From a virus, in the IMG/VR virus record IMGVR_UViG_3300030442_000019: 54,054 nucleotides of DNA; one strand, given 5' to 3'. The position numbers and the translations under genes are program-made. Every line of letters starts with the position of its first letter. Position 1 is the stretch's first letter. Below are positions 8,940 to 54,054 of the stretch, piece by piece. Under the pieces are notes generated by a model. It ran no database searches. It was not told where the DNA came from and saw only the letters and a list, made by a program, of their open reading frames with translations.

Positions 8940-9602
8940 TCATTCTGCAAATACCCAATCTTCCGCAAGCATATCTGTCTGAGACGGTGCCCACGGCACT
9001 TTATTTTTAGGCGAATAAGGATTTTCTGTCTGTAATCCAGTAGTGTTGATATATATGAACGAATGCGTCATATAATTGAATGCTTCAATAGTTGTTCTTG
9101 CTGTAACTCTGTCGTATTCTTTCACTTCTTCACTTAGTTCAGAATACGGAATCATATCCGGGTGATCTGTAACTCCTTGTTTTTTCTTTTCTTCCCACCA
9201 TGCGTTATGCACTGCTTCTGCAATAGTTTCAAGATTGACTTCTGGCGAATACATTTCCAGATAGATTCCTTTACCATTCCAACCTTTACGAGCTACCTTA
9301 AGTCCTCTTTTTAGATAACGGATAGCATCACCGAATCCAAATGTTGACTGACCGCCGAGAATACCGCAATTCTCTTCATCTGCAATCATCCAGTCATCCC
9401 TCTGCGTGTGCATGAAAGTATATTCCACTCTCTGCGTTTCACGAATATCAAGAACATCTCCCTGTCCTTTGTCGGAATCCTTTGGTCTGCAATGAATCAT
9501 AATCGTCTTTTTATCATCATCCCAACACCAGTAACCATTCCATCCAGGCAATTTCACTTTCGCACCTTGTTTCATTAATTCAAACGCTTCTTTAAAAATC
9601 AT
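8940..9602 (-). CDS. Tandem DUF2829 (Tad2-like) protein with an inserted RyR-like segment
   Basis: Two DUF2829-type N-terminal motifs: FKEAFELMKQGAKVKLPGW and FGDAIRYLKRGLKVARKGWNGKG. The C-terminus has WAPSQTDMLAEDW. The inserted segment is AVHNAWWEEKKKQG..IPYSELSEEVKEYDR. Confidence 0.6.
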   Translation of the reverse strand: MIFKEAFELMKQGAKVKLPGWNGYWCWDDDKKTIMIHCRPKDSDKGQGDVLDIRETQRVEYTFMHTQRDDWMIADEENCGILGGQSTFGFGDAIRYLKRGLKVARKGWNGKGIYLEMYSPEVNLETIAEAVHNAWWEEKKKQGVTDHPDMIPYSELSEEVKEYDRVTARTTIEAFNYMTHSFIYINTTGLQTENPYSPKNKVPWAPSQTDMLAEDWVFAE

Positions 9603-10070: not shown

Positions 10071-10697
10071 TCACCTCTCCAATCTTATAATTGTGTGAAA
10101 TTCTTTTTCAGATAAGGCACTTTCAGTCACGAGCCAAAGGCTATCGTCAGCAATATTCCTAGAAGCATATACTTTGAATAAAAGTCCAGAAACAATAACA
10201 TTTTGGGATTTATTTATCATTGACAAACCGTCAAGACTTTTTTTAGGGACAGCAAACGACAGAGTATATGTACTTTCTGCACCGGTTAAGAGCTTTTGAT
10301 AGTCCATGTGCTCAGAAATAATTGTTTCCCCAGTTTCATAAAATTTAATATTCCACCCAATACGGTTTTTGAGATCAATCATTTCATCTGCCGTAATGTT
10401 CGGCGTTTCATCGACTACCGTTTCCTCTGCCGGATACATTTCCCAATCCTCAGCAAGCATATCTTCTTGTGTTGGTGTCCAGTTTGGCTGAAAGCTTCCT
10501 TTTCGCGTATAACCCATAATGCAGTCCGAAAAACATTCTTCTTCTGGTAGAATTGCAAGAAACGTTTTTGTTGTTAAACCTTTGTTTTTTCCAATAAAAA
10601 TAAACTGTTTTCTCCCATTAAAAAAGTTTTCTTTCCATACATTACGTGTAACTTTCTTTCCCTTTTTCATGCATTTTATGGCTTCTCCGAAGTTCAT
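10071..10697 (-). CDS. DUF2829 (Tad2-like) N-terminal domain protein with an unknown C-terminal domain
   Basis: Motifs MNFGEAIKCMKKGKKVTRNVW and WTPTQEDMLAEDW. Confidence 0.55.
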   Translation of the reverse strand: MNFGEAIKCMKKGKKVTRNVWKENFFNGRKQFIFIGKNKGLTTKTFLAILPEEECFSDCIMGYTRKGSFQPNWTPTQEDMLAEDWEMYPAEETVVDETPNITADEMIDLKNRIGWNIKFYETGETIISEHMDYQKLLTGAESTYTLSFAVPKKSLDGLSMINKSQNVIVSGLLFKVYASRNIADDSLWLVTESALSEKEFHTIIRLER

Positions 10698-21551: not shown

Positions 21552-21687
21552 TCTCTTAATCTATATATTTATATTTCCGGCTCCCGTCTTTATTTTCTTA
21601 ATCATATAATAGAATCTTGGTCTTTTCTTCCTTTTCTCCACTTCCTACCGCTGTTGGGATGATGGTGGGAACACGAGAAAGTACCTA

Positions 21688-23043
21688 TTAATATATGCTA
21701 AAATGTATGTCTATGTCATCTTCTGTGATAACCACCTTTTCAACACACTCTTTTAGCACCTTGTTTTTCTCGGAATCCGTCAGTGTATCCCACACGTTGG
21801 ACATCTCTTTTATTTTCTCTATTTTTTCTCCCCGTCCAGCTTTCTCCCGGATGTCTTCTGCCTTTAGTTCTTCCTGTAGATTTTTCAGTTTTTTTTCTTC
21901 TGTCTGGATAACATCAAAAAGTGTATCTGTACCGGAACTACCGCTTGCATACAATGTGTATAGGCGTTTCAGTTTTGCTTCGCTTAGTGATATCTCTTTT
22001 TCTATCATCTTCCTGGTGCTTTCGGATTCATTCTCTTTTTCTTCGACATTAACGATGAATCTTTTAAAGCAGTCCTCTACTTCTTTTTCTACCACATCTG
22101 CCCGCACCTTTTTATTCTTGCAAGGGTTCCCTGTCTTAGATATATGCTCTTTTTCCTTGTACTGTGAGTAACATACTATCTTGGTGTACTTTCCCCACTT
22201 TTGCATCCGCATTTTGGTGCCACATTTTCCGCAGTAACACAAACCGGTAAGCATATGCTTGTTGCTTACATAAGCATTTGTGGATCTCTTTTTTATCTCT
22301 TCCTGTACTTCGTAGAATAGTTTTTCGTCTATGATTGGTTCATGCAAGCCTTGGTATGTTTTTCCTTTATATTGTATTTTACCTACATAAGCTATTCGCC
22401 TAATAATGTTCGATACAAGCTTCTCTGAATGCATCCCGAGGATTTTTTGAATCCTATCACACGAATATCCGTCCCGGAACATCTGAAAGATAGCTTTTAC
22501 CTTTTCCGCTTCTTCCGGGATGATATGTAATATCCCATCGTTCCTGTCGTACCTATATCCGTACGGTATCGTACCACCACCCATCCACAGTCCACGCTTT
22601 ACACGCTCCACCATCCCGGCTCTTGTACGCATATAGATAACCTCACGCTCATACTGCCCCATGACCGCATTAACGCCCAGCATCACACGATCCATCGGTG
22701 TCTCATTCCGCAAATCCTCTGTAGCCGATACTACCTCTACATTGTATTTTGGTAAGAGCTTACTCACAAGCGTAAGAGTATCTACAACATCACGGCTCAT
22801 TCTGTCAAGCTTATAGATGTATACTGCCTGTATTTCTCCGGCTTCTGCATCTTCCAGAAGTTTCTGTATGTTCGGTCTTTGGATATTGCTCCCGGAATAT
22901 CCCCCGTCTACATACCATCTGGCTATCTTCACGCCCCTTTTCTTGGCAAGTTCCTTTATCTTGTCTTCTTGGACATCAAGACCATACTTTTCGGCCTGTG
23001 CTTCTGTAGACACTCTCATATAACCTACATTTAATTTTTTCAT
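21688..23043 (-). CDS. int: Large serine recombinase (integrase)
   Basis: The resolvase-type N-terminus is GYMRVSTEAQ...YKLDRMSRD. It also has a recombinase domain, a Cys-rich zinc ribbon and a coiled coil. Start refined to MKKLNVGY. Confidence 0.9.
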   Translation of the reverse strand: MKKLNVGYMRVSTEAQAEKYGLDVQEDKIKELAKKRGVKIARWYVDGGYSGSNIQRPNIQKLLEDAEAGEIQAVYIYKLDRMSRDVVDTLTLVSKLLPKYNVEVVSATEDLRNETPMDRVMLGVNAVMGQYEREVIYMRTRAGMVERVKRGLWMGGGTIPYGYRYDRNDGILHIIPEEAEKVKAIFQMFRDGYSCDRIQKILGMHSEKLVSNIIRRIAYVGKIQYKGKTYQGLHEPIIDEKLFYEVQEEIKKRSTNAYVSNKHMLTGLCYCGKCGTKMRMQKWGKYTKIVCYSQYKEKEHISKTGNPCKNKKVRADVVEKEVEDCFKRFIVNVEEKENESESTRKMIEKEISLSEAKLKRLYTLYASGSSGTDTLFDVIQTEEKKLKNLQEELKAEDIREKAGRGEKIEKIKEMSNVWDTLTDSEKNKVLKECVEKVVITEDDIDIHFSIY

Positions 23044-23106
23044 GTCAATTCTCCTTTCAATTAAAAAAGAATTGACCAAGATTCTATCAAGGTCAATTCT
23101 AAAATA

Positions 23107-30534: not shown

Positions 30535-30653
30535 TTTCTATCCCTCCTAAACCAAAACTTTCGTTTCTTCTTTTCTCGTTTCTCTTTCTGCTTTTTAGAC
30601 CACTCTGCAAGATATTGTTCCTGTTCCTGATCTTCCTGTTCCTGTCGTGTCAC
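30531..30653 (-). CDS. 40-aa micro-ORF (MTRQEQ...) linking RT and the DUF4317-like gene
   Basis: The GTG overlaps the RT stop (TAGTG) and its stop overlaps the next GTG (GTGA). The N-terminus is duplicated at 33557. Confidence 0.35.
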   Translation of the reverse strand: MTRQEQEDQEQEQYLAEWSKKQKEKREKKKRKFWFRRDRK

Positions 30654-30664
30654 TATGTCACCTC
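30635..30664. repeat. 30-bp direct repeat, copy A (28 of 30 identical to 33539-33568)
   Basis: CCTGTTCCTGTCGTGTCACTATGTCACCTC against ...CACAAAGTCACCTC. Confidence 0.85.
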
Positions 30665-31681
30665 TTTCATCAATTCCTCTATATACAGATCCATACTATG
30701 AACCAACTTAATACAATTTCCATGCAATGCATGGTTCTTCCATGAATTATATTTCTCATAGAATTTTTCTTCCGTGAGTTTCCAAGCTTTCACGTCTTTC
30801 ACCAATTTTCGGAATTTCTTTTTGTTCTTCCGCTTATTCTCTCCTGTCAGCTTCCGAATATATTTCCCATCGGCCGTCATATAATGATGGAACCCTAAAT
30901 ATCGCATTCCTTTTCTAAACGGTATGATCTGTGTCTTTCCGTTCAATTCAAGTCCAAGTGTTTTTAGCATTTCTTTGATGCATTCCAAACACCATTTCAA
31001 ATATTCCTTATCTTGATGAATCAAGTAGAAATCGTCCATATATCTTCCATATTCAGTAATTCCAAGCTCGCCGGTTGCCATACAATCTACTGCATGGACC
31101 ATAAGCAGTGCATATACCTGTCCGGCTTGATTGCCAAGTGGTAAACCTGGATTCTTGCTACTATCAATCAGTGTATGATTCAGCCATGTTGTGTACGGGT
31201 CTGGGAAGAAATAATCTACAATATCTTTCAGTATTTCATGGTCAATTTCGTAAAAGAAATGTCTTATATCGCATTTCAATATCCATCCGTCTACGCCATG
31301 TCTCTGATAGAATGATTCCATGTGGTCCCTTAATCCATCTAATGCATACAGTGTTCCTTTTCCTATTTGTCCGGCAGAATTGTATTTTATAAATACATTC
31401 TTCAATTTTGGATGCAGAATGTTGTCACAGAGTATGTGTTGCACTACCTTATCTTTAAATGAACATGATTCAATTACTCTTTGTTTCGGCTCATATATTT
31501 CGAACCGGTTATACGGAGCAACTGTATATGTCTGATTCTCTAACTGCTCTTTTAGGATATTGATTCCGTCTAAAGCGACATTAGAAAATCTTGCAGTGCT
31601 GCTATTAAATTTCTTGCCAGACTTAGCTTTTCGATAAGCGTAATACAGATTCCCATAATCCGTGACAATTTCTCTATCCAT
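30653..31681 (-). CDS. DGR-type reverse transcriptase
   Basis: Motifs YMDDF and LPLGNQAGQ (the DGR form of the IGNxxSQ motif). It sits next to TR and avd. Confidence 0.9.
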   Translation of the reverse strand: MDREIVTDYGNLYYAYRKAKSGKKFNSSTARFSNVALDGINILKEQLENQTYTVAPYNRFEIYEPKQRVIESCSFKDKVVQHILCDNILHPKLKNVFIKYNSAGQIGKGTLYALDGLRDHMESFYQRHGVDGWILKCDIRHFFYEIDHEILKDIVDYFFPDPYTTWLNHTLIDSSKNPGLPLGNQAGQVYALLMVHAVDCMATGELGITEYGRYMDDFYLIHQDKEYLKWCLECIKEMLKTLGLELNGKTQIIPFRKGMRYLGFHHYMTADGKYIRKLTGENKRKNKKKFRKLVKDVKAWKLTEEKFYEKYNSWKNHALHGNCIKLVHSMDLYIEELMKEVT

Positions 31682-31774
31682 TGGTACTCCTTTATATTTA
31701 CCTCTATGAGGACGGTCCGTTTCCTTTTTGTATCTTTCCCGATTTCGGCTTGATGCCTACTCTGACTCCCTGTT

Positions 31775-31848
31775 ATACAGAATGGGCGCACCCCGTTACT
31801 GTTGTTGTAGTTATTGTTGTTGATGTTACCGGACGGAGAAACAACCGC
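31775..31848 (-). repeat. DGR template repeat (TR), non-coding
   Basis: The minus-strand sequence is GGTTGTTTCTCCGTCCGGTAACATCAACAACAATAACTACAACAACAGTAACGGGGTGCGCCC. The core has 19 adenines, mostly in AAC codons. Confidence 0.9.
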
Positions 31849-31874: not shown

Positions 31875-32246
31875 TTATCTTTGCCGGTCTTTAGTTCTCC
31901 ATGCAATAGCCATATGTTTTACATCAGATACCAACTTTGACCAATATTCCACGCTTTTTTCACTGATGATATTTAGCTCATAGGACATCTCTATGTAGAA
32001 AAGTAGTTCATCGCAATACGTAATTGCTTTCGTCTGCATTTCAAGTCGATCTCTTTTATAATTCTTGATATCCGTTCTATTCGCTTCAAAGAGCATTTCA
32101 TAGATTTCCATTGACTTATTCTGCATTTTATCAACAAGTGAAAATCTATATTTTTTTGGATATCGGTTGGCATTGCTAGTCACTTTCAATGTATGTGTGG
32201 CCAGTTCCTTCGCCTTTTGAATTACTTTCAGATCATTCTCTGCCAT
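31875..32246 (-). CDS. avd: DGR accessory variability determinant (Avd)
   Basis: 123-aa basic helical protein between the target gene and TR. TAATG overlap with target 2. Confidence 0.8.
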   Translation of the reverse strand: MAENDLKVIQKAKELATHTLKVTSNANRYPKKYRFSLVDKMQNKSMEIYEMLFEANRTDIKNYKRDRLEMQTKAITYCDELLFYIEMSYELNIISEKSVEYWSKLVSDVKHMAIAWRTKDRQR

Positions 32247-32842
32247 TAATCATCATCTTCCTCACAAGATTCAAAGATTGAAGAGGAAAAGATACAAACT
32301 GGGCGCACCCCGCCACTGTAGTAGTAGCGACCGTAGCTGATGCTACCGGACGGAGAAACAACCCGAACAAAGGTGTCATCATTATTACAAGCCGTGCTGT
32401 CTGGTGTAAGTGTCCACCACCATTTACCCCTATTCGGCAGGAACTCTCTATACTTCCGGTATTCATCCACGGAAATAAGCGAAACATAATCTCTGCAAGT
32501 TCCATATTCCGTCTGACCATCTAACGAAAGTAAATTGCGTTCAAACTCGACCAGTGAATCTGCCCCTAATTCACTTTCAATCTTTTTGCGGAGATCAGTG
32601 TTTAACTCATTTCTCAAATCACTGGATTTCCAATCGTTGCAATTATCATCAAACTCTCTGTCTCCTCCGTAAAAATCTTCCGAAATTGCAAAATATCCTT
32701 TTTCAAGCTTGTCCAACACCAGCCACTTAATACCGGCAACCTCAATTGTCTTTCCGATTTCCGGCTGATATTTTTTTCTTAACTGTTCAAAAACTTCATT
32801 AAGATTTTTAAGGTTTTCTCCGAATTCTTTTAACGTCATCAT
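32246..32842 (-). CDS. DGR target protein 2 (DUF6273-like / C-type-lectin-fold C-terminus)
   Basis: 198 aa. The C-terminus WWWTLTPDS...VVSPSGSISYGRYYYSGGVRPVCIF contains VR1. Confidence 0.85.
   Translation of the reverse strand: MMTLKEFGENLKNLNEVFEQLRKKYQPEIGKTIEVAGIKWLVLDKLEKGYFAISEDFYGGDREFDDNCNDWKSSDLRNELNTDLRKKIESELGADSLVEFERNLLSLDGQTEYGTCRDYVSLISVDEYRKYREFLPNRGKWWWTLTPDSTACNNDDTFVRVVSPSGSISYGRYYYSGGVRPVCIFSSSIFESCEEDDD
32292..32363 (-). repeat. DGR variable repeat VR1
   Basis: 11 differences from TR, all at TR adenines. The flanks GGTTGTTTCTCCGTCCGGT and GGGGTGCGCCC are identical. Confidence 0.9.
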
Positions 32843-32845
32843 GTT

Positions 32846-33457
32846 TTACTCCTCCTCAACTTTGGATACAAAGATATTAGATTTTAATATACAAAATGGG
32901 CGCACCCCGAGACCGTCGTTGCAGTTAACGTAGTCGATGCTACCGGACGGAGAAACAACCGCTACTGAACACTTCCATCCTCTTTCTTTCGTACTCCAAG
33001 ATGTGCAAGTCCAGTACCAATCCGGGAGGTCTTTGTTTACAAGCAGATCATTGTATTCACGTGCTTCGTCAAATGTCAGAGGTCTTACTTTTGTCAAGAG
33101 TTTTCCAAATACTTCCTGTCCATCAACTGTTACTAATCCGGCTTCATTTGTACAAATATTTTCTTCTCCGAATTCATCAGAAAACTCATTGAGAATTTCG
33201 CCTTCGCACAGTTCTCTTAATAATGATTTCCTGTATTCCGTACAATCATCATCAAATTTCACATTTTCGCGATATAAGCCTTCTGTAATAACTACAGTGG
33301 AATCTTCTTTCTGTTCCAGTACAATGAATCTTCCGATGCCTGTAGCAAACTTCCCACCAATCGGAATATCTTTCAGCATCACTTTGTTTTTCTGGTCTTC
33401 TTTCTCGATAGCTGCTACTAATTTCTTTGCTAATTCCAATACATTACTTTTGCTCAT
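32846..33457 (-). CDS. DGR target protein 1 (paralog of target 2)
   Basis: 203 aa. The C-terminus WYWTCTSWS...VVSPSGSIDYVNCNDGLGVRPFCIL contains VR2. Confidence 0.85.
   Translation of the reverse strand: MSKSNVLELAKKLVAAIEKEDQKNKVMLKDIPIGGKFATGIGRFIVLEQKEDSTVVITEGLYRENVKFDDDCTEYRKSLLRELCEGEILNEFSDEFGEENICTNEAGLVTVDGQEVFGKLLTKVRPLTFDEAREYNDLLVNKDLPDWYWTCTSWSTKERGWKCSVAVVSPSGSIDYVNCNDGLGVRPFCILKSNIFVSKVEEE
32889..32962 (-). repeat. DGR variable repeat VR2
   Basis: 10 differences from TR, all at TR adenines. Confidence 0.9.
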
Positions 33458-36108: not shown

Positions 36109-36783
36109 TTACAAGCTGAACCCCGCTTTCACTTCTTTCTTGTTGTCAAAAATCCATTTATACTGGATTACGGTCAACTCTTCTATCTTTTTGATTTGAT
36201 ATCCGGCAAGAAGTTTGTTCTCGTCAATTCCTTCTTTTTCGAACATCTTTCTAAGCGAATTGATATGATACTGATTAACAAAAGTATCTTGTGTAGCCTG
36301 TTCTTTCTTTCCACCGTTCTTTTGGTCGGCTCCCGTCTGCTTTTTATATTCATCTGTATCCGGGTCCCTCACATCATCCAAGAGGAACAGTGCATTCATA
36401 GCGTATTTTCTTGCATAGCTTGATGATGATCCCGTAACCTGTGATTCATCCATCTTCGGCTTGCTCTCTGGCTCTCTCGCATATCCCGTAGTAGATATTT
36501 CCTCTCCGTTTTCGCAATCGATGAAAGTTGCTACTGACTTCACGTATACTCTCCCGGCTATTTCTACAACTTCATCTCTCAGTAAAAGTGATGAATTGTA
36601 TTCTCTGGCGTATTTTTTGAATTCGTTCAGAATACTTTCAGCGCTCCGATAGTCATAGCCACCGTAATTGCTGTGCTTGTCTTTCGGGACATTCATTTTC
36701 GTCTGAATCTCAGAAAGTTTTTCCCTTATGCCAAGTTTGCACTTATCCTGTTCTGTCTTCTGCTCTTTCTTTTCTTCTGCCAT
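36109..36783 (-). CDS. erf: ERF-family single-strand annealing protein
   Basis: Motifs YGGYDYRSAESILNEF and GSSSSYARKYAMNALFLLDD. Confidence 0.75.
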   Translation of the reverse strand: MAEEKKEQKTEQDKCKLGIREKLSEIQTKMNVPKDKHSNYGGYDYRSAESILNEFKKYAREYNSSLLLRDEVVEIAGRVYVKSVATFIDCENGEEISTTGYAREPESKPKMDESQVTGSSSSYARKYAMNALFLLDDVRDPDTDEYKKQTGADQKNGGKKEQATQDTFVNQYHINSLRKMFEKEGIDENKLLAGYQIKKIEELTVIQYKWIFDNKKEVKAGFSL

Positions 36784-44393: not shown

Positions 44394-45383
44394 TTATTTT
44401 ACAACGCCGGATAAGAGCCAGTAGGTTGTGACAAGTCCTACTTTTCTATCCGGTGTAAGTCCTCTGTTCCTCTGGAATACTTCTACGCACTTTCCGAGAT
44501 AATCCGTCCATCCCTCATTGTAAGACAGCTTCGTAAAGCCATATACGTCTCTGAGGGTACGTCTAAGCCATCTGATAGCCGTGATACAGTTGTGCGTCTG
44601 CCCTGCCCATAAGATATGCGTTTTAGCAAAATTCTGTGAGCCGACACCGAATTTGTCATCAACAGACAGTGCGTTGGTATCAAACCCTTTGTTCATGGCT
44701 TTCTGCCATTCTCCAACACGGGAATTATTGAGATAATACCGACTGTCACCTTTCCAAGATTCATCTACCGGTTTAGGTGCCGGTGCTACAGTCGGTTTCT
44801 GTACAGGCTTTGCAGTACCACCAAGATTCTTATACACATAGTTCACATCCACATAACCTGGAATGCCTGGAATAGAACCCTTTGACGTGTACTGCCACAT
44901 GTCGATTCCGTCTACTCCGGCAGATTTAGAGCCGTAAGATGCAATCCACAGAGAATACCCCCATGTCTGACCGATATAGTTCTTGTACCAAGATGTAGAT
45001 GCATAGATTCCGGCTTTGTAGCCATGTGACACCATTGCGTCACAGAATGCTTTTGCATTGGCTTTTGCAACGCCTTGTGTTCCCGGCTGTTCGCTGTCGA
45101 AATATACAGGCCATGCCGGAGAATGTCCTTTTAGAAGTCTTAATGCGTGGTTAATTTCTCCACGTACCGCACCTGTAGTCTTTGCGTAAGAATACAGATA
45201 TACACCGTAAGGGATGCCAAGACGCTCACATTCAGATACATTTCTCAGCCATTTTTTATCATCCTGTCCGGTCTGATCTTGTCCATATCCGCATCTAAGG
45301 ATAGCACCTACAATGCCGGATGCTTTTACTTTCGCCCAGTCGATGTTCCTGTTATGTTCAGAAACATCGACTATCCTATTCAA
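44394..45383 (-). CDS. Endolysin: GH25 muramidase plus two PG_binding_1-like repeats
   Basis: Motifs VDVSEHNRNIDWAKVKASGI and IDMWQYTS.G.IPGI.GYVDVN. The C-terminal repeats resemble PG-binding repeats. Confidence 0.85.
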   Translation of the reverse strand: MNRIVDVSEHNRNIDWAKVKASGIVGAILRCGYGQDQTGQDDKKWLRNVSECERLGIPYGVYLYSYAKTTGAVRGEINHALRLLKGHSPAWPVYFDSEQPGTQGVAKANAKAFCDAMVSHGYKAGIYASTSWYKNYIGQTWGYSLWIASYGSKSAGVDGIDMWQYTSKGSIPGIPGYVDVNYVYKNLGGTAKPVQKPTVAPAPKPVDESWKGDSRYYLNNSRVGEWQKAMNKGFDTNALSVDDKFGVGSQNFAKTHILWAGQTHNCITAIRWLRRTLRDVYGFTKLSYNEGWTDYLGKCVEVFQRNRGLTPDRKVGLVTTYWLLSGVVK

Positions 45384-45561
45384 TATATCCCTCCTGTTTT
45401 AAGTGTTCTTTCGTTTCCGTAATCTCTGATGCATGATCTTTCACAAACTTTTCTGCATCTGCTTTTTCCATTCCGTAGTGTTCTGCCAATTCGTCTACGG
45501 TGTATCCGTAGGCACAGCTTTTGACTACTTCGCAAATGGTTTCTTCGCTCAATTTTTCCAT
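45376..45561 (-). CDS. 61-aa acidic, non-membrane protein upstream of the endolysin
   Basis: ORF track. It has no TM segment, so it is not a holin. Confidence 0.5.
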   Translation of the reverse strand: MEKLSEETICEVVKSCAYGYTVDELAEHYGMEKADAEKFVKDHASEITETKEHLKQEGYIE

Positions 45562-45596: not shown

Positions 45597-46013
45597 TTAT
45601 GGAGAAAGTTCAGAAAAATATCGTCCCCGTATTTTTCTGAGTTAAATAAAAATATAACTGATAGGTATGTATACTCATATACTACTTATCTTGATGCCGA
45701 AAAAAGTACAAAAACATCACTGACACTTAAAAGCATCAAGGCGACTGAACATGGAAGAAAATGTATCCTAATGTGCTGTGGTGCTATCAAGGCAACAACT
45801 TTAACAGCAAGGCTGAGCGTATACGTCAACGGTAAGAATAGTTGTTCCGGAATAGCATCATCCGCAAGCTATGTGTCGGTATTCGACAGTAATATTATAA
45901 CCCTTCTGGAGGGCGAAAACGCGATTGAGATAAGACTGTCAGCACAAGCAAATACGACTACAGCATATCTTGGACGCTACCACAAACTCGGCTTCATTGT
46001 CGCAGAATTATAA
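45597..46013 (+). CDS. Silent alternative tail-fibre C-terminal cassette (start-less open frame)
   Basis: The frame is open from 45597 but its first ATG is at 45771. It is in codon phase with the left inverted repeat and lies tail-to-tail with gene 46018-46530. Confidence 0.55.
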   Translation, partial: LWRKFRKISSPYFSELNKNITDRYVYSYTTYLDAEKSTKTSLTLKSIKATEHGRKCILMCCGAIKATTLTARLSVYVNGKNSCSGIASSASYVSVFDSNIITLLEGENAIEIRLSAQANTTTAYLGRYHKLGFIVAEL

Positions 46014-46306
46014 CTAATTATCCGAAATAGAATATTGCATAATTTATTCTAAAACTACCAACACTAGTGTTTTGATTAAGTACTGCGTACCATATGCCTT
46101 TTAAGTAGGAACTACCTTCTACATGTGCTTTTTGAGCCTCTGCATCTCCGTTAGCAAATAATACTACCGTATTTGCATTAGAAGAATTAGTTACGCCGAG
46201 CATTTTATTTATCTCTGAATTAGTAAATACTTGTATAGATGTGATAGCACTTGCGGTTACAACTTTTGATCCAAATTTCATTTTAGCTATATTTTTATTT
46301 AACTCA
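45638..46306. other. Putative invertible DNA segment bounded by 19-bp perfect inverted repeats
   Basis: TGAGTTAAATAAAAATATA at 45638-45656, and its reverse complement at 46288-46306. Confidence 0.6.
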
Positions 46307-46530
46307 CTAGCATATTCCACGATAGTTTTGTTGTTTAGTTCTGCAAATCTCCAAGTAGATGCAATTCTTTTTTTAATGGAATCAAACAGCACTCCTATCT
46401 TCGCTCTGCTTGTTATTGGAGTAGAATCTTCTATGATAATATCATCCGTATCGTTCACTTCTGTGACTTGTGGAAGATCTTTTATGTATTTTCCATATAT
46501 TTTCTGCAATTTTAAATTTTCATTAGCCAT
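46018..46530 (-). CDS. Tail fibre / receptor-binding protein with a switchable C-terminus
   Basis: Last gene of the fibre run. The right inverted repeat encodes SELNKNI at residues 78-84 of the track ORF. Start refined to MANENLK. Confidence 0.65.
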   Translation of the reverse strand: MANENLKLQKIYGKYIKDLPQVTEVNDTDDIIIEDSTPITSRAKIGVLFDSIKKRIASTWRFAELNNKTIVEYASELNKNIAKMKFGSKVVTASAITSIQVFTNSEINKMLGVTNSSNANTVVLFANGDAEAQKAHVEGSSYLKGIWYAVLNQNTSVGSFRINYAIFYFG

Positions 46531-47257
46531 TTGCATCATCCTCCTTTGCTACTGCTAATGTTTGTGTGGCCATGCTTTCAAGTTCTGAAATTCTTCGTTC
46601 AAGTTCATAGATATCGTCTTCTGTAAGTATTTTTTTTAAATTTACTCCATTATGCCAATAAGGTTGTGAAAGGCTTTGAATAACAGTATTTGCATTAATA
46701 TCACCAACTTTTAATTTTACTGAAACGCCAGATTCTTCACTTTCTGTAGTTGCTTCAAACAAATTATAAATTGATCCATTTATTTCCCTTTTTAGGTTTC
46801 CTGTCATATTCCCTCCGGCTGTCGGGACATAAGGTTGTCCGGATCCGGAGAAAACTTCATTTGCCGGAAAATTAACATCTGTTTCTCCGTTTACTTTTCT
46901 TTCACATCCACCGATCGTTACAGTTCTTTCTGCTCCCCATCGTTCTGTAGTGATTCCCTCTGTTCCGTCAAATGCCGTTCCATTAATTTTAATACTATTC
47001 TTCAAACTTGAAGCTTTTATGTTCGATAATTCAATCAAGAGTGCCTCTCTACCATCTGTAGTTCCACTCCCGGTCGCATCTCCTGTTATAGATACCAAAA
47101 ACGGAGTAGCAAGCTTTATGGCTTTTTCTACTATCATTAAAGTTTTCAGCATTCCGATAGTTAGTTGTAAATCTTCGGTTTTGGTGTGAAGCAAGACAGT
47201 ATCGTCATCCGAAAGGCTATCCGCTTTATTTAATTCTTCTATATATACATCTGCCAT
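46523..47257 (-). CDS. Tail fibre protein
   Basis: 244-aa ORF, beta-rich with a C-terminal coiled coil. Confidence 0.6.
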   Translation of the reverse strand: MADVYIEELNKADSLSDDDTVLLHTKTEDLQLTIGMLKTLMIVEKAIKLATPFLVSITGDATGSGTTDGREALLIELSNIKASSLKNSIKINGTAFDGTEGITTERWGAERTVTIGGCERKVNGETDVNFPANEVFSGSGQPYVPTAGGNMTGNLKREINGSIYNLFEATTESEESGVSVKLKVGDINANTVIQSLSQPYWHNGVNLKKILTEDDIYELERRISELESMATQTLAVAKEDDANG

Positions 47258-53705: not shown

Positions 53706-54054
53706 ATTTACGAGTCCGAATACTCTTCTTAATTCTTCTTTTTCTTCTTCGCTTCGCTCTGGTGTCGCTTTAAGGTCAACAAGTTCTTTGTTGCTAGAAT
53801 AGAATTCTTTTTCCCAACTATCCAATTTCTTCCCTTTCGAGACTTTTTCACGAATGTTAGTGATAGTGCTGAACAGAGATTCTCCAATCTCCATAAAAAG
53901 TCCCATGAATGTCCACCAATGTAAGTACTCTTTCTCACGAATATCCTCATGTGCCACTTTATTAATGGCCGGAATCAGAATCTTTGCATCTTTTTTCCAA
54001 TCCATAAGTTGCGGTTTTTTCTTATCTCCCTTAAATCCGCAGTCGATAAACTCT
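53700..54054 (-). CDS. Tail assembly chaperone, Phage_Gp15-like (3' part of the gene that starts at 335)
   Basis: Same reading frame as 1-335 across the junction. The track ORF 53700-54005 is the portion from an internal Met. Confidence 0.75.
   Translation of the reverse strand, partial: EFIDCGFKGDKKKPQLMDWKKDAKILIPAINKVAHEDIREKEYLHWWTFMGLFMEIGESLFSTITNIREKVSKGKKLDSWEKEFYSSNKELVDLKATPERSEEEKEELRRVFGLVNN
53956..54054. repeat. Terminal overlap copy (identical to 1-99)
   Basis: Direct comparison of the window ends. Confidence 0.9.

Follow-up and report, generated by a model that had tools for sequence, protein, structure and literature searches.

Tail fibres whose receptor-binding tips are exchanged by DNA inversion are, to our knowledge, a textbook subject for Mu and P1 in enterobacteria and barely described for the phages of the dominant Gram-positive gut anaerobes. 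In Mu (G segment, Gin), P1 (C segment, Cin) and e14 (P segment, Pin) either of two C-terminal parts can follow the constant N-terminal part of the fibre, short inverted repeats inside the gene bound the segment, and the silent cassette is devoid of promoter and start codon; the phages are temperate, and prophages with either orientation occur. In this work we describe a locus that shares these features, a putative invertible segment of 631 bp that comes last in the tail module of IMG/VR virus record IMGVR_UViG_3300030442_000019, a stretch of 54,054 nucleotides (the window, with position 1 as its first letter) from a temperate siphophage of Dorea. The original prediction had assigned it the logic of the Mu G and P1 C segments, and the functional layout is indeed borne out, whereas the adjacent serine invertase and the chaperone genes of those systems are not found. 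Mu, P1 and e14 have an adjacent Gin/Hin-type invertase and a segment of about 3 kb, and Mu carries tail-fibre chaperone genes (U and U′), while the Dorea phage genome encodes no such invertase and its much shorter segment no such chaperones. Its 19-bp repeats moreover have weak internal dyad symmetry and vary between related phages, its host is Gram-positive (Lachnospiraceae), and it is a siphovirus. Enzymes of the Gin/Hin class are serine invertases of about 190 residues acting on 26-bp sites in which a central dinucleotide separates two inverted 12-bp half-sites and for which the family has a common consensus. They also use a recombinational enhancer that depends on Fis, a protein that we know of no reason to expect in Lachnospiraceae. 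With neither an adjacent serine invertase nor chaperone genes in the segment, the locus does not belong to the Mu/P1 family.

The shufflon Rci of R64 and Min of p15B likewise swap C-termini of adhesins or fibres in frame at short repeats, and Rci sites consist of one conserved and one non-conserved arm, an asymmetry resembling the fixed outer and variable inner sides of the Dorea phage repeats. R64 and p15B, however, have many segments and an adjacent recombinase (tyrosine Rci and serine Min, respectively), and because the Dorea phage has only two cassettes and no tyrosine recombinase it does not qualify as a tyrosine shufflon either. The closest published parallel is found in Bifidobacterium prophages, which contain, next to the Rin shufflon, an inversion of about 500 bp without a recombinase, for which an invertase acting in trans was proposed (Mavrich et al. 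2018, PMC6109161). Both concern gut Gram-positive temperate siphophages with variable receptor-binding C-termini behind a short asymmetric repeat. At the Rin locus several cassettes adjoin a tyrosine invertase, a layout that the Dorea phage does not have; at the recombinase-less locus no function could be recognised for either gene and two prophages were compared at an 8-bp site (PMC6109161), whereas the Dorea switch, whose proteins are unrelated to the Bifidobacterium ones, occurs in at least four phage families and includes an isogenic flipped pair. The host recombinase RecV of Clostridioides difficile inverts several switches whose repeats differ and which have no recombinase nearby (PMC5903667). 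RecV and Mpi of Bacteroides fragilis thus share with our locus segments without a neighbouring recombinase and repeats that differ from locus to locus, RecV being the precedent from the Clostridia, but they switch host promoters, while the Dorea phage swaps coding sequence in a phage gene. No description of a switch of such kind in Dorea or Lachnospiraceae phages was found in the searchable literature.

The reading that we favour, with moderate confidence, is that of a two-cassette invertible host-range switch that ends the tail module of this phage and whose enzyme is supplied in trans. The segment (45657-46287) is bounded by the perfect 19-bp inverted repeat TGAGTTAAATAAAAATATA, which an exact string search returns twice in the window and at the positions first noticed, with the distal copy (IR-L) at 45638-45656 on the plus strand and the proximal copy (IR-R) at 46288-46306 on the minus strand. 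Its chance expectation, from dinucleotide-preserving shuffles, is 0.01 matches; allowing up to two mismatches leaves the copy number at two, allowing one mismatch extends the arms to 22 nt, and the pair is the sole long perfect inverted repeat of its kind across the 54 kb. Read by eye and without statistics, AGTTAAATAAAAATATAACT is self-complementary at 14 of 20 positions. IR-L is flanked on its outer side by a fixed, non-coding ...tttttc. IR-R lies within the last fibre gene, where it encodes the end of ...A-S-E-L-N-K-N-I, in agreement with the predicted S-E-L-N-K-N-I, and closes a constant N-terminal anchor (46307-46539, minus strand; 84 residues including IR-R) that is predicted to be helical and poorly ordered.

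The fibre open reading frame (46018-46539, minus strand) encodes 173 residues, or 170 if translation starts at 46530. Between the repeats lie two convergent cassettes with 4 nt between their stop codons: cassette A (46018-46287, minus strand; 89 residues and a stop), the C-terminal module now expressed and forming a beta-sandwich head, and cassette B (45657-46013, plus strand; 118 codons and a stop), a silent, start-less and all-beta alternative. The frame that follows IR-L is in the same codon phase, is open from 45597, has its first ATG at 45771 and stops at 46011-46013; every coordinate and count given at the outset is correct. Inverting 45657-46287 in silico yields, as had been claimed, an exchange of the 89-residue for the 118-residue C-terminus on the 84-residue anchor, that is, an in-frame fusion of 202 residues, and leaves the present C-terminus start-less behind the other repeat. 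A start-less frame staying open for this length has a probability of about 0.003 under a simple stop-codon model; comparable open runs are, however, present nearby on the plus strand, and homology rather than frame length is therefore the evidence that counts for cassette B.

Such homology is abundant. In a search of about 5.8 billion proteins the predicted fusion is covered over 99% of its length by two proteins of 199 residues, P0001 at 85% and P0002 at 80% identity, and the 118-residue B module forms the C-terminus of several hundred proteins of 293-308 residues that have other N-terminal domains. A further start-less copy of B is found in P0005, a gene call of 131 residues that includes ...FPYFSELNKNI from the outer flank and the repeat. 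Conservation of B at the protein level extends 38 codons upstream of the ATG at 45771, up to the repeat, from which it follows that coding constraint spans the stretch from repeat to stop codon rather than beginning at that ATG. For B, the ratio of nonsynonymous to synonymous substitution rates (dN/dS) lies at 0.07-0.38 in every pairwise comparison, silent or expressed, and at 0.07-0.19 for the silent copy of the studied phage against expressed copies. Judged by these ratios the silent B copy has been under purifying selection, which is selection that would be felt only when the cassette is expressed.

We compared the locus with 27 related IMG/VR loci (numbered, with contigs from other sources, with an L prefix), which together with the studied phage we call family 1 and 25 of which were analysed for the repeat site. 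The anchor (...EYASELNKNI) is full-length and 77-96% identical in 22 of the 27. At least eight C-terminal modules that are unrelated to each other follow it, with the junction always at the repeat (25 loci). A downstream inverted copy of GAGTTAAATAAAAATAT is present in all but one of these 25; its outer flank is an invariant 'ttttct', that of the proximal copy being 'gctagt'. An in-phase start-less cassette follows the second copy, undamaged at some loci but with a frameshift or truncation at others, so that the relation of frame to repeat, whose absence in relatives would have counted against a switch, is kept. The opposite orientation, for which relatives were to be compared, is found in L004, which encodes P0001: both flanks are collinear with the studied phage (46550-46289 at 93.5% and 45658-44323 at 88.2% identity) and the interior (46299-45638) aligns reversed, exactly between the repeats. 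L001-L003 have B in the expressed position (B-on) as well, and about 160 bp are deleted from their silent A. Another set of opposite arrangements consists of L021, with module D on and module A′ silent, and L023 and L024, with A′ on and a remnant of D. Loci encoding P0134 were considered as closer flipped partners of L001 and L004 and rejected; they are still 77-94% identical and their silent B is frameshifted. Repeat integrity and silent-cassette integrity show only a loose trend. Nucleotide and protein searches of 50,697 GenBank phage records gave no match, and the family is absent from annotated phages; a scan of species-representative genomes with the anchor gave no relative.

The B module led us to a Dorea longicatena prophage situated beside carbamoyl-phosphate synthase genes, which represents a second family. 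Its fibre has an unrelated N-terminal domain of about 160 residues and a linker (...TNKDLSNK...), followed by either B (293 residues in total) or an A-type cassette (275 residues), and the unexpressed cassette is again convergent and start-less. The repeat, AAATAAGGATTTGTCCAATAA, measures 21 bp, and 31 bp in L043 and L044; the region of crossover is upstream of, and separate from, the one in family 1. Among 80 IMG/VR loci of family 2, L045-L047 are B-on and L048-L050 and L073 have an A-type cassette on (A-on). L046 and L050 are identical over 1609/1609 positions of the left flank and 1500/1500 of the right flank, and their interiors are identical over 713/713 positions but reversed, the pattern that a conservative inversion leaves when the background is otherwise isogenic, and we take it as proof that flipping has been recent in this family. 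Families 3 and 4 combine other N-terminal domains and gene contexts with the 21-bp repeat and the A/B pair of family 2, and families 2-4 occur in both states. Across the superfamily there are at least six different repeats of 13-31 bp, all in the same linker, and L057 has nested pairs of 13 and 19 bp. A metagenome scan for both family-2 junctions returned three contigs only, too few to address co-occurrence within a sample.

Some contigs end at a repeat: the Logan contig L008 stops inside the distal repeat (45640), and L069, L070 and L072 of family 2 stop at the start of theirs. We considered such ends as a sign of mixed orientations and found them ambiguous, since co-occurring relatives that differ beyond the repeat break assemblies likewise; contig ends at or beside repeats may be assembly breaks. 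In L135 (10001-12729) a B-on fibre gene (297 residues) stands tail-to-tail with a whole second fibre gene (274 residues) and its upstream tail genes on the opposite strand, which would be either a chimeric assembly, joined through cassettes common to both, or the result of a large inversion at the switch that involved two prophages.

Beyond the anatomy and the purifying selection on the silent copy, these comparisons establish that the alternative fusion exists in relatives and that homologous segments occur in both orientations; that this particular phage still flips, and that its recombinase is supplied in trans, probably by the host, we infer. The mechanism that we propose starts from the constant 84-residue anchor encoded by the last fibre gene, which ends in ELNKNI; the DNA for this peptide recurs, inverted, 631 bp downstream. 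The segment would be turned round by a reciprocal and conservative exchange within the 19-bp repeat, after which the anchor would be joined in frame to B (118 residues) in place of A (89 residues), with A becoming the promoter-less and start-less silent copy. With both cassettes as receptor-binding tips, a phage population with two adsorption specificities would result. The likeliest catalyst would be a site-specific recombinase of the host Dorea that acts on the prophage, in the manner of RecV of C. difficile or Mpi of B. fragilis.

Several findings weigh against this proposal. Neither IMG/VR nor the JGI metagenome contigs contain the recombinant junction of anchor, repeat and B, so that no isogenic flipped copy of the studied phage was found, and among the roughly 5.8 billion proteins searched the fusion is matched best by P0001, at 85% identity. 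The flipped relatives in family 1 are only 77-94% identical and could be explained by a few ancient events. In many family-1 relatives the silent cassettes are frameshifted or truncated and the repeats mismatched, that is, in this family the switch often decays. All five contigs that encode the exact 173-residue protein are A-on, as are the closest IMG/VR relatives. Repeats that vary between lineages are not explained by a single recombinase with one fixed crossover site, and variation of repeats in sequence and position is what homology-driven exchange predicts. Finally, we identified no candidate host enzyme for the repeat.

Four other explanations were weighed against a host-driven switch. 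According to one, the plus-strand frame is an ordinary gene of 80 residues starting at 45771, next to a repeat that is a coincidence of A/T-rich linker sequence. Public gene callers do annotate the 80-residue frame here, but the conservation of the 38 codons upstream of the ATG, the recurrence of the same 118 residues at the end of longer fibre proteins elsewhere, the lack of any sigma-70-like promoter match upstream of 45771 and the low chance expectation of the repeat effectively refute it on comparative grounds. A second explanation makes an invertase of the phage's own integrase, a possibility floated with the original prediction. This large serine recombinase (21688-23043, minus strand; 451 residues; Pfam domains Resolvase, Recombinase and Zn_ribbon_recom) lies about 23 kb from the switch and is, as had been noted, the only recognisable site-specific recombinase in the complete genome. 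Contigs that come with precomputed Pfam calls match positions 71-52539 at 90-100% identity, and to these calls we added our own scans: a six-frame search of the genome gave no second serine-recombinase domain, ten further unknown open reading frames were negative in a screen for recombinases, and no Phage_integrase-family (tyrosine) match occurs in the genes of the phage or of its near-identical annotated relatives, which upholds the reported lack of a small Hin/Gin-type invertase or tyrosine recombinase. In none of the four families does a small invertase occur at less than 10 kb from the switch. A role as invertase, with the repeats as an inverted pair of att-like sites, would further agree with the alignment of the enzyme in PHROGs to 'DNA invertase' families too (via the shared catalytic domain) and with the presence of a large serine recombinase on a switch-bearing contig in three of the four families (1-3). 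However, comparison of free and integrated copies places the crossover of the phage attachment site (attP) at ...GTTCCCACCATCATCCC|, with a core at about 21650-21670, just downstream of the gene, and this GC-rich site resembles the repeat no better than shuffled sequence does. The integrases of families 1, 2 and 3 are mutually only 25-27% identical, yet one and the same 21-bp repeat, along with the cassettes, is found in families 2 and 3, and the prophages of family 2 (L040/L043) and family 3 (L133) adjoin different host genes. Moreover, large serine integrases pair attP with the bacterial site attB, not two like sites, and need a directionality factor for reversal. As attP is unlike the repeat and the integrase does not co-vary with it, we consider the integrase a very improbable invertase.

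A stronger competitor, though one we still hold to be rather unlikely, is homology-driven inversion, in which the switch and its result are unchanged but there is no dedicated invertase, and short identical stretches in the conserved linker recombine through ERF- or RusA-like functions of the phage while it replicates or through host RecA. It would account for repeats of 13-31 bp that differ in sequence and yet always occupy the same linker, for the nested pairs of L057, for the non-overlapping crossover regions of families 1 and 2, and for the absence of any recombinase that co-varies with the repeat; the 31-bp repeat of L043 and L044, against 21 bp in close relatives, looks as if a gene-conversion tract had lengthened the identity. 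The phage itself encodes an ERF-type annealing protein (36109-36783), besides a weak RusA match, and phage recombinases of the Rad52-like kind are reported to swap DNA between phages by relaxed homologous recombination (PMC3945230). Against this explanation stand the identical 21-bp boundaries in three families with unrelated N-terminal domains, as expected for a discrete site, and the perfectly conservative L046/L050 flip; single-strand annealing of inverted repeats alone, moreover, gives no clean reciprocal inversion. Repeats of 13-21 bp are also below the range in which RecA-type exchange is efficient. The same boundaries, the same conservative flip and the shortness of the repeats support a discrete site, as do the precedents of RecV (PMC5903667) and of the recombinase-less Bifidobacterium inversion (PMC6109161), and we rank a trans-acting, likely host, site-specific recombinase first and homology-driven exchange second, an order that the data do not decide. 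Less probable than homology-driven exchange, and in our view quite unlikely, is that the locus is a fossil, the cassette having been acquired from other phages or flipped long ago, with no switching now and with B decaying or recently silenced. The uniform A-on state and the missing flipped junction described above fit a fossil, as do the frameshifts and deletions that are common in the silent cassettes of relatives, even in L217 with its perfect 21-nt repeat. The studied phage, on the other hand, has the best-preserved unit of family 1, with a perfect repeat and an intact 118-codon cassette; the dN/dS of its silent B against expressed copies is low; a sister family flips the same cassette pair without one substitution; and consensus assemblies show the majority orientation only, which makes absence from contigs weak evidence.

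A broader reading, possible if tentative, is that temperate Dorea/Lachnospiraceae phages share a portable repeat-cassette-cassette-repeat switch that needs no dedicated invertase and whose flipping is set only by a short in-frame identity within a conserved fibre linker. Execution would fall either to a host recombinase of general function that is not strict about its sites or to the homologous-recombination proteins of the phage itself, so that programmed inversion would here be recombinase-free or rely on a borrowed recombinase, and repeats would then be expected to vary between lineages while the architecture stays constant. In either this or the favoured host-driven form, the switch occurs in at least four Dorea phage families, with cassettes exchanged between them and without a phage-encoded invertase. 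Host-range prediction and strain-level virome analysis must consequently allow for two adsorption states per genome, and searches for inversions that demand a recombinase nearby will miss such switches. The catalyst, should it be a Dorea master invertase or phage proteins acting on less than 20 bp of identity, would be new to phage-programmed variation, and either could yield a compact inversion module for engineering in Firmicutes.

The switchable gene is the last of the tail module, in the order tape measure, tail protein, NlpC/P60, a fibre-like gene of 244 residues, the switchable gene, an open reading frame of 61 residues and GH25 lysin. In the AlphaFold model of the 173-residue protein, residues 85-173 form a confident beta-sandwich (predicted local distance difference test, pLDDT, of about 90) and the anchor is poorly ordered and partly helical. 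In a viral structure library module A matches an L-shaped tail fibre protein best (E 1e-9), with other fibre tips ranking next; a fold search of the PDB with module A gave nothing significant, with pyocin and tailspike tips on top at E of about 0.1. The model of the anchor joined to B has a low-confidence pLDDT of 50 and was kept out of the fold search, so that of the two C-termini singled out for structure prediction A proved a confident fibre head while the model of B is poor. Modules A, A′ and C are homologous to one another, while B is an all-beta module of another kind; neither the fibre protein nor cassette B could be placed in a family by Pfam and PHROG scans. Both the gene position at the end of the tail module and the structural match of A thus back the tail-fibre reading, and the predicted product is supported as a tail fibre or receptor-binding protein, the constant anchor being probably its baseplate-docking and trimerisation part.

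The upstream neighbour in the tail-tip module, the 244-residue gene (46523-47257, minus strand), has a weak PHROG match to 'long tail fiber protein distal subunit' (E 9e-5). On the other side, the distal repeat is adjoined by the acidic 61-residue open reading frame (45376-45561, minus strand), which is conserved in family-1 relatives and is not a recombinase. It was considered as a DNA-binding accessory and rejected, its only helix-turn-helix matches being weak and sub-threshold (HTH_Tnp_1, E 0.02, below the cut-off), and it is unlike the 123-residue gene found there in families 2-4. The first approximately 55 residues of the anchor also start a protein of 546 residues with a GDSL-type lipase motif, seen by eye (L036 4001-5641 and L038 1170-2810), and a GDSL-lipase/Big_2 protein of 722 residues lies directly upstream of the switchable gene in L001 (3530-5698) and L217, which suggests one docking domain shared by several tail-tip proteins. 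Some A-type cassettes carry a direct duplication of the 10-residue site peptide (NKNITSVKSVNKNIT), namely at 1017-1335 of L004, in the fibre gene of L040 and at 3230-3290 of L217; the duplication amounts to two tandem AATAA(A/G)AATATAAC motifs, of which the A cassette of the studied phage has one.

A terminal direct repeat of 99 bp (1-99 and 53956-54054) marks the genome as complete and as circular or circularly permuted, with a length of about 53,955 bp. Integration takes place into a host gene of the sigma-70 family beside a HAD hydrolase gene, pth and mfd (L125 compared with L126, L128 and L129, at about 4388), and insertion into a sigma-factor gene recalls the skin-type elements that interrupt such genes. 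The host is Dorea: the pth flank is 99% identical to metagenome-assembled genomes of Dorea sp., and family-2 proteins are annotated as Dorea longicatena. A 21-nt inverted repeat with 90% identity (21609-21629 and 23067-23087) brackets the integrase gene; of its arms, one overlaps the gene start and one lies at a distance of about 30 nt from the crossover of attP.

The second diversification device that had been reported for this phage, a diversity-generating retroelement, is indeed present, with a reverse transcriptase (30653-31681), a bAvd-like gene (31875-32246), a template repeat (31751-31846) and two variable repeats (32268-32363 and 32865-32960). The latter are the 3′ ends of two small genes, of 198 and 203 residues, outside the tail module, and the differences cluster at template T positions on the plus strand, that is, at A on the coding strand. 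Lastly, two genes in the head and packaging region (8940-9602 and 10071-10697) match Tad2-like PF11195, an anti-Thoeris counter-defence family, as seen on contig L011, which is 100% identical to positions 71-20697.

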